Source: Escherichia coli
Lineage (GTDB): Bacteria; Pseudomonadota; Gammaproteobacteria; Enterobacterales; Enterobacteriaceae
NCBI RefSeq assembly: GCF_013315695.1
Contig: NZ_CP054353.1
DNA: 64,000 nt
Direction: 5' to 3' (one strand)
The notes beneath the pieces were generated by a model that saw only the letters and a list, made by a program, of their open reading frames with translations, was not told where the DNA came from and searched no databases. Shown here in pieces: positions 55,993-56,076 of this stretch; position 1 is the first letter of the stretch, and each line of letters starts with the position of its first letter. A program made the position numbers and the translations under genes.

Positions 55993-56076
55993 GGTGGGGT
56001 TCCCGAGCGGCCAAAGGGAGCAGACTGTAAATCTGCCGTCATCGACTTCGAAGGTTCGAATCCTTCCCCCACACCA
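55993..56076 (+). tRNA. tyrT: tRNA-Tyr (GUA), copy 1; 1 nt shorter than copy 2 at the 3' acceptor strand
   Basis: GGTGGGGTTCCCGAGCGGCCAAAGGGAGCAGACTGTAAATCTGCCGTCATCGACTTCGAAGGTTCGAATCCTTCCCCCACACCA; anticodon loop CTGTAAA; ends ...CCCCCACACCA vs ...CCCCCACCACCA in copy 2. Confidence 0.85.

Follow-up and report, generated by a model that had tools for sequence, protein, structure and literature searches.

A one-base deletion in the first tandem tRNA-Tyr gene of an assembled Escherichia coli tyrTV operon: private mutation or consensus error

The tyrT-tyrV operon of the E. coli chromosome analysed here carries two tandem tRNA-Tyr genes that differ by a single base in the 3′ strand of the acceptor stem, and the question is whether one of the two genes has been altered by a genuine mutation or whether a base has been dropped from the assembled sequence. 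The window, by which we mean the whole analysed stretch of 64,000 nt (64 kb), is E. coli chromosome and was matched in 5,425 of the 5,426 complete E. coli genomes. Its home is the CE10/MSB1_4I/MS 21-1 lineage; the complete genomes nearest to it are MSB1_4I, MS 21-1 and the UK blood isolates AF3 and AF14, and the prophage at its left side is also common to the O7:K1 strain CE10. According to the annotation of MS 21-1 and MSB1_4I, the gene order is purU, tyrT-tyrV and narI-narJ-narH-narG, and the tandem tRNA-Tyr genes stand behind the tyrT promoter, between purU and narI, in the layout of the tyrT-tyrV operon (Table 1). The site at 55915..55942 presumably functions as a promoter, a reading that we take over from K-12. 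As this canonical tyrT promoter lies just upstream, copy 1 is the promoter-proximal gene tyrT and copy 2 is tyrV. The promoter sequence in the window equals that of the tyrT promoter primer lhm-T2, and tyrT and tyrV share one promoter, with the third tRNA-Tyr gene, tyrU, located elsewhere (PMC2887954). A promoter-like site at 56245-56272 and a terminator-like site on the minus strand at 56000-55986 were treated as chance consensus matches.

Table 1. Features of the tyrTV region of the window, with positions, strand and the basis of each assignment.
Feature	Position	Strand	Basis
purU (formyltetrahydrofolate deformylase), upstream of the tRNA operon	54991..55833	+	transferred from MSB1_4I annotation (L004 27991-28833, offset +27000); same order in MS 21-1
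tyrT promoter: TTTACA, 16-nt spacer, TATGAT with upstream TG, then G+C-rich discriminator GCGCCCC	55915..55942	+	consensus scan, 10/12 matches
Precursor 5′ leader GCTTCCCGATAAGGGAGCAGGCCAGTAAAAAGCATTACCCCGT, removed by RNase P	55950..55992	+	read in sequence; start inferred from the -10 position
tRNA-Tyr(GTA) copy 1 (tyrT), 84 nt including CCA, without one C of C71/C72	55993..56076	+	
Deletion site: CA vs. CCA in every relative; G1 left without a partner	56072..56073	+	alignments with MS 21-1, MSB1_4I, AF14, AF3 and E7-1N7
34-nt intergenic spacer, short allele, without RtT repeat	56077..56110	+	aligns to the 34 nt that directly precede tyrV in K-12
tRNA-Tyr(GTA) copy 2 (tyrV), 85 nt, wild type	56111..56195	+	
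3′ trailer of the operon, lacking RtT and tpr; homologous to the K-12 sequence beyond the last RtT	56196..56338	+	
narI intrinsic terminator: hairpin AGACCCTGCTTCGGCGGGGTTT, then T run	56339..56360	-	terminator scan
narI (nitrate reductase gamma subunit), convergent downstream gene	56379..57056	-	transferred from MSB1_4I annotation (L004 29379-30056)

Direct reading of the sequence places copy 1 from G55993 to A56076, where it ends ...GGTTCGAATCCTTCCCCCACACCA and is followed by TCT, and copy 2 from G56111 to A56195, where it ends ...CCTTCCCCCACCACCA; the two 3′ ends read CCCCCACACCA and CCCCCACCACCA, respectively. At the junction of copy 1 and the spacer this amounts to CACACCATCT with the deletion vs. 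CACCACCATCT with the extra C. The original prediction, made from the letters alone, had described copy 1 at 55993-56076 as lacking one C in its 3′ acceptor strand; its coordinates and quoted sequence are exact, and the missing base is borne out by direct reading as well as by pairwise alignment with the nearest relative, which agree that one C is the sole difference between the copies. The lost base belongs to a CC dinucleotide at tRNA positions 71/72 (linear positions 80/81; window 56072/56073). This dinucleotide adjoins a run of five C residues, and the base is not missing from that run. ARAGORN recognized both copies as tRNA-Tyr(GTA), with lengths of 83 nt for copy 1 and 85 nt for copy 2.

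It had further been claimed that copy 1 would lose full pairing with GGTGGGG, and this agrees with its predicted structure. When copy 1 is folded by itself, its D, anticodon, variable and T arms are preserved, and the predicted acceptor stem has 6 bp (G2-G7 with C66-C71), an unpaired G1 and the tail ACCA. The seven-base-pair acceptor stem closed by G1-C72 is lacking in copy 1 and is present with its full 7 bp in copy 2. The A-CCA of copy 1 directly follows the last base pair and is displaced by one nucleotide relative to G1; whether the molecule is described with G1 opposite A and C at position 73, or with a 6-bp stem and A73, the set of base pairs is the same. The GTA anticodon, the long variable arm and the D and T arms are identical to those of copy 2 and of K-12. 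Predicted folding energies were -28.1 kcal/mol for copy 1 vs. -31.7 kcal/mol for copy 2, and an 83-nt form of copy 1 without G1 is predicted to fold at -28.4 kcal/mol with a normal 4-nt tail. Against the Rfam tRNA model (RF00005; gathering threshold 29 bits) both copies scored above the threshold, copy 1 with 41.2 bits and copy 2 with 53.4 bits, a drop of 12 bits, and cmscan flagged in copy 1 a non-standard 1:72 pair and a C in the discriminator column. In the minimum-free-energy fold of the whole dimeric precursor, the 5′ strand of copy 1 paired with the 3′ strand of copy 2 in the mutant and the wild type alike; we discarded this result as an artefact of identical tandem genes that is uninformative on the deletion.

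The position of the lesion bears on what is known of the enzymes that handle this tRNA. In bacterial RNase P, A248 stacks on G+1/C+72, the acceptor and T stems are measured as a 12-bp ruler, and a GGU pairs with the RCCA end (PMC11143913). The tyrosine identity of the E. coli tRNA depends critically on A73 and U35, with the G1-C72 pair as the acceptor-stem element in bacteria (PMC9976931). If the deletion is real, tyrT would still be transcribed from its intact promoter within the dimeric precursor, and its product would have a 6-bp acceptor stem, an unpaired G1 and an A-CCA whose register relative to the 5′ end is off by one nucleotide. We would expect RNase P to cut such a precursor slowly or at the wrong bond and TyrRS to charge any copy 1 product poorly, given the dependence on A73 and G1-C72, and the defective tRNA would probably be degraded for the most part by RNA quality control. 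Cleavage by RNase P at the 5′ end of copy 2 should be independent of copy 1, and the net outcome would be that one of the three tRNA-Tyr genes loses all or most of its function.

Occurrence of the deletion in other genomes was followed with queries of different length. A 67-base query that spans the junction of copy 1, spacer and copy 2 was run against 5,426 complete E. coli genomes and found the short-spacer layout in 2,538 of them (~47%). No exact match to it was obtained among these 2,538 short-layout genomes; among the matches listed, the top ones are 68 bases long, against 67 in the query, and therefore include the extra C. A 37-base query limited to the tRNA 3′ end covers every tRNA-Tyr gene, with exactness judged on the best place in each record. 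The deletion was absent from all 15,738 tRNA-Tyr 3′ ends of 5,425 complete E. coli genomes covered in this way, and in no record was the best place an exact match. A 24-mer with the deletion likewise gave no exact match in 100,044 species-representative genomes (one per species) and none in metagenome contigs. The zeros for the deletion are meaningful because the wild-type 25-mer, used as a control, was matched in at least 120 stretches, from Enterobacterales as well as from other phyla.

The quality of the surrounding sequence can be judged from its differences to close relatives. Over the 64 kb, the window and MSB1_4I are separated by 16 substitutions, one 11-bp tandem-repeat difference and two 1-base indels, which we polarised with MS 21-1, AF14, AF3, PCP06238 and CE10. 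Between positions 27001 and 64000 the window has zero private substitutions, and the tRNA deletion is the sole site at which it differs from all four relatives; in the same comparison no window-private substitution lies within 10 kb of the tRNA. The prophage part (3690-24980) holds eight private substitutions, five of them clustered at 4628-4733 and three isolated, and zero private indels. Against the closest relatives no second private 1-base indel was seen in the 64-kb window, longer homopolymer runs included. The private prophage substitutions, taken together with this lack of private indels, point to a distinct isolate with a clean consensus and a mutational history of its own. Copies of the multicopy elements IS1, IS3 and IS4 lie within the window, and since the sequence runs through them, the assembly must be long-read based or finished. 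Of the two 1-base indels relative to MSB1_4I, the second, which lies in the C run at 56342-56345, is private to that genome.

The same comparisons brought up several features of the region in their own right. The five clustered prophage substitutions fall within 106 bp of the lysis-gene region (4628-4733) and are absent from MSB1_4I, AF3, PCP06238 and CE10; the cluster resembles a short patch acquired by recombination from another lambdoid prophage rather than a set of independent mutations. On the minus strand of the prophage, at 9075-9324, there are three tRNA genes that ARAGORN assigned to Arg(TCT), Arg(TCG) and Met(CAT); the gene with the CAT anticodon is annotated by RefSeq in the relatives as tRNA-Ile and is presumably of the lysidine-modified type. 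At position 24980, between the end of the prophage integrase gene and ompW, the 11-mer GTTTTGCAGAG is tandemly duplicated in MSB1_4I and single in the window, AF3, PCP06238 and CE10. The IS4 copy between tdk and adhE (~47785-49131) has substitutions at 47894 and 48225 in MSB1_4I and AF3, but not in the window, MS 21-1 or AF14, and these could be a phylogenetic signal or a trace of gene conversion between copies of IS4. The C run at 56342-56345 is part of the narI terminator stem and reads CCC in MSB1_4I vs. CCCC in the window, MS 21-1, AF14 and AF3. The window, MSB1_4I and AF3 each have a private length change of their own within ~400 bp of the tyrTV-narI intergenic region, which could mean either that the stretch is a mutational hotspot or that its assembly is difficult.

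Taken as a whole, a real mutation and a consensus error are about equally likely, and by a rough estimate a real private indel and a residual consensus error are both to be expected at ~1e-4 to 1e-3 per 85-bp gene. The choice between a genuine mutation and a homopolymer assembly error had been framed rightly in the original prediction; the second of these is put too narrowly, as the base is missing from a CC dinucleotide, which is atypical for a homopolymer error. We rejected homopolymer error as the specific mechanism, since the run that lost its C is two bases long and none of the longer runs in the 64 kb shows a private change in length, and consider a consensus error of a non-homopolymer kind possible. 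That one C was dropped in sequencing, assembly or polishing, and that the strain in reality has two identical wild-type tRNA-Tyr genes, is given somewhat less than an even chance. In none of the collections searched does the deletion occur outside this assembly, and it is the sole difference from the four nearest relatives across 37 kb; with zero private SNPs in those 37 kb, a real private indel there is unlikely a priori. The site itself is C-rich and of low complexity (CCCCCACCACCA) and is situated inside a 119-bp tandem duplication, and the multicopy IS1/IS3/IS4 imply a long-read-based assembly, for which single-base deletions are the characteristic residual error. In MSB1_4I, a private 1-base difference in the length of a C run is found 270 bp away, and the region may thus be error-prone. 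Against these points, the lack of any further private 1-base indel in 64 kb that include many longer homopolymer runs indicates a low error rate, and ordinary reads can reach unique sequence across a repeat period of only 119 bp. That a 2-base run lost the base, when a homopolymer error would sooner have hit the 5-base run beside it, speaks in the same direction and, together with the intact promoter, the otherwise clean consensus, the isolate's own private substitutions and the redundancy of the gene, for a real deletion. A genuine, recent and strain-private deletion of C71/C72 in tyrT, with a tolerated loss or strong reduction of function, comes very close to an even chance. The cell would tolerate such a lesion since tyrU and the cotranscribed tyrV are both intact, and the strain would functionally equal natural strains with a single copy at the locus.

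It is improbable that the deletion is real and the product of copy 1 is still processed and used, either with a 6-bp stem after cleavage by RNase P between G1 and G2 or with an unpaired G1, and either partly active with tyrosine or altered in identity, e.g., through weak recognition by GlnRS, an enzyme with a preference for a weak 1:72 pair. Copy 1 keeps its cloverleaf, its anticodon, its variable arm and an A-CCA that follows a G:C-closed stem, and both the predicted fold of the 83-nt form and the Rfam score above the gathering threshold are compatible with such a molecule. In amber-suppressor backgrounds, moreover, substitutions that weaken the 1:72 pair result in tRNAs that insert glutamine (PMC9976931). 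Yet this mischarging with glutamine is known for suppressors with the CUA anticodon, not for the native GUA anticodon, and the absence of the allele from ~15,700 E. coli tRNA-Tyr genes and from 100,044 species speaks against its having any selective value. EF-Tu and the ribosome both depend on the distance between the elbow and the CCA end of a tRNA. So does RNase P (PMC11143913), and an acceptor plus T-stem helix of 11 bp would shorten this distance. Still less to be expected, and in our view highly improbable, is a real deletion after which tRNA-Tyr of 84 nt, or of 83 nt after a cut behind G1, would accumulate as a natural tRNA with an unpaired 5′ nucleotide or a 6-bp acceptor stem and, by low-level charging with TyrRS or by mischarging (e.g., by GlnRS), cause low-level mistranslation at Tyr codons in a wild isolate.

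How much the loss of one copy at this locus would matter can be seen from related genomes. AF3 (NZ_OZ547117.1) is near-identical to the window, from which it differs by a handful of substitutions only, and has a single tRNA-Tyr gene (L008 28993-29077) in the place that corresponds to window 55993-56195. It has lost exactly one unit of 119 bp, i.e., gene plus spacer, and as far as can be judged from the sequences this would fit an unequal crossing-over between the tandem copies. Further complete genomes are annotated with one tRNA-Tyr gene at the tyrTV locus and, together with AF3, indicate that a single functional copy at this locus is a natural and viable state.

The stretch between copy 2 and the narI terminator (56196-56333) had been taken for the 3′ trailer of the operon and for a match to rtT/tpr of K-12. 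It is the trailer of the operon, but the match to rtT/tpr did not hold, as there is no RtT by Rfam and no tpr ORF or tblastn match at the locus. A search of window positions 55500-56800 with the RtT model (RF00391) gave no match at E<=1, and none was found in MS 21-1 either; K-12, used as a positive control, gave four matches of 131.8-132.9 bits, one between tyrT and tyrV and three after tyrV. Window positions 56177-56400 align at 95% identity to K-12 L005 1338-1561, a segment that starts where the last RtT feature (1225-1356) ends and extends into narI. When the window was aligned to the K-12 RtT repeats (unit of ~178 bp), only a segment of ~20 nt that resembles a tRNA 3′ end could be matched. 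No arginine-rich, tpr-like ORF (~29 codons) is present in 56077-56370, and tblastn with a Tpr peptide whose sequence may be inexact found no match at the window locus, with each K-12 repeat matched at 69-93% identity. The tpr-like frame of the K-12 repeats (L005 890-976, 1068-1154 and 1246-1332) reads MRSFD*GSARAPARERCRRQRPEGRSAQR and has an in-frame stop at codon 6 relative to that peptide; either the peptide sequence used is inexact or the annotated start differs. Judged by sequence, rtT and tpr are absent here, and the trailer is homologous to the distal part of the K-12 trailer. Among the matches listed, tandem tRNA-Tyr pairs ~118-121 bp apart occur in Citrobacter, Enterobacter, Kosakonia and Lelliottia (L017, L027, L058 and L084), and E. 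albertii (L021) has a K-12-like period of 294 bp. It may be that the short, RtT-free layout is the ancestral one and that the RtT repeats expanded specifically in Escherichia.

If the deletion is real, it adds another case of a redundant tRNA gene copy knocked out by point mutation in one isolate, and such a knockout is to be expected because the tyrT-tyrV tandem is known to be dispensable and unstable in copy number. As an artefact, it would be one consensus error that deserves correction in the record. A private lesion or a base-call error in one tRNA-Tyr copy is biologically ordinary either way, and the gene, the operon, the effects of acceptor-stem lesions on the same tRNA and the copy-number instability of the tandem have long been known. 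For annotation it matters that both tRNA finders still call copy 1 a normal tRNA-Tyr, so that a pipeline would not flag the lesion, and that about half of the complete E. coli genomes have the short tyrTV allele without RtT/tpr, so that expectations about the trailer that are based on K-12 do not transfer.

Compared with tyrT of K-12, MS 21-1 and MSB1_4I, copy 1 has the same position, promoter and leader and keeps 84 of the 85 nt, one C apart. The trailer of the window belongs to the same operon and lies in the same position downstream of tyrV as the RtT/tpr trailer of K-12, but RtT and tpr are missing from it. The spacer likewise is that of the short allele, with 34 nt and no RtT, whereas in K-12 it has 209 nt and contains an RtT copy. 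The AF3 singlet shares with the window its lineage and flanks and, provided that the deletion is real, the state in which one functional tRNA-Tyr gene is left at the locus; yet in AF3 a whole repeat unit is gone, whereas the window keeps both units, one of them with a point deletion. Acceptor-stem mutants of su3/supF, which derive from tyrT, are known from the genetics of the 1970s to yield less mature tRNA, to be affected in RNase P processing or to be changed in charging specificity. Both these mutants and copy 1 have the pairing upset at the top of the acceptor stem of the same tRNA. The su3/supF mutants, however, are substitutions that were selected with the CUA anticodon, while copy 1 has a single-base deletion, the native GTA anticodon and a CCA end that is shifted by one nucleotide.
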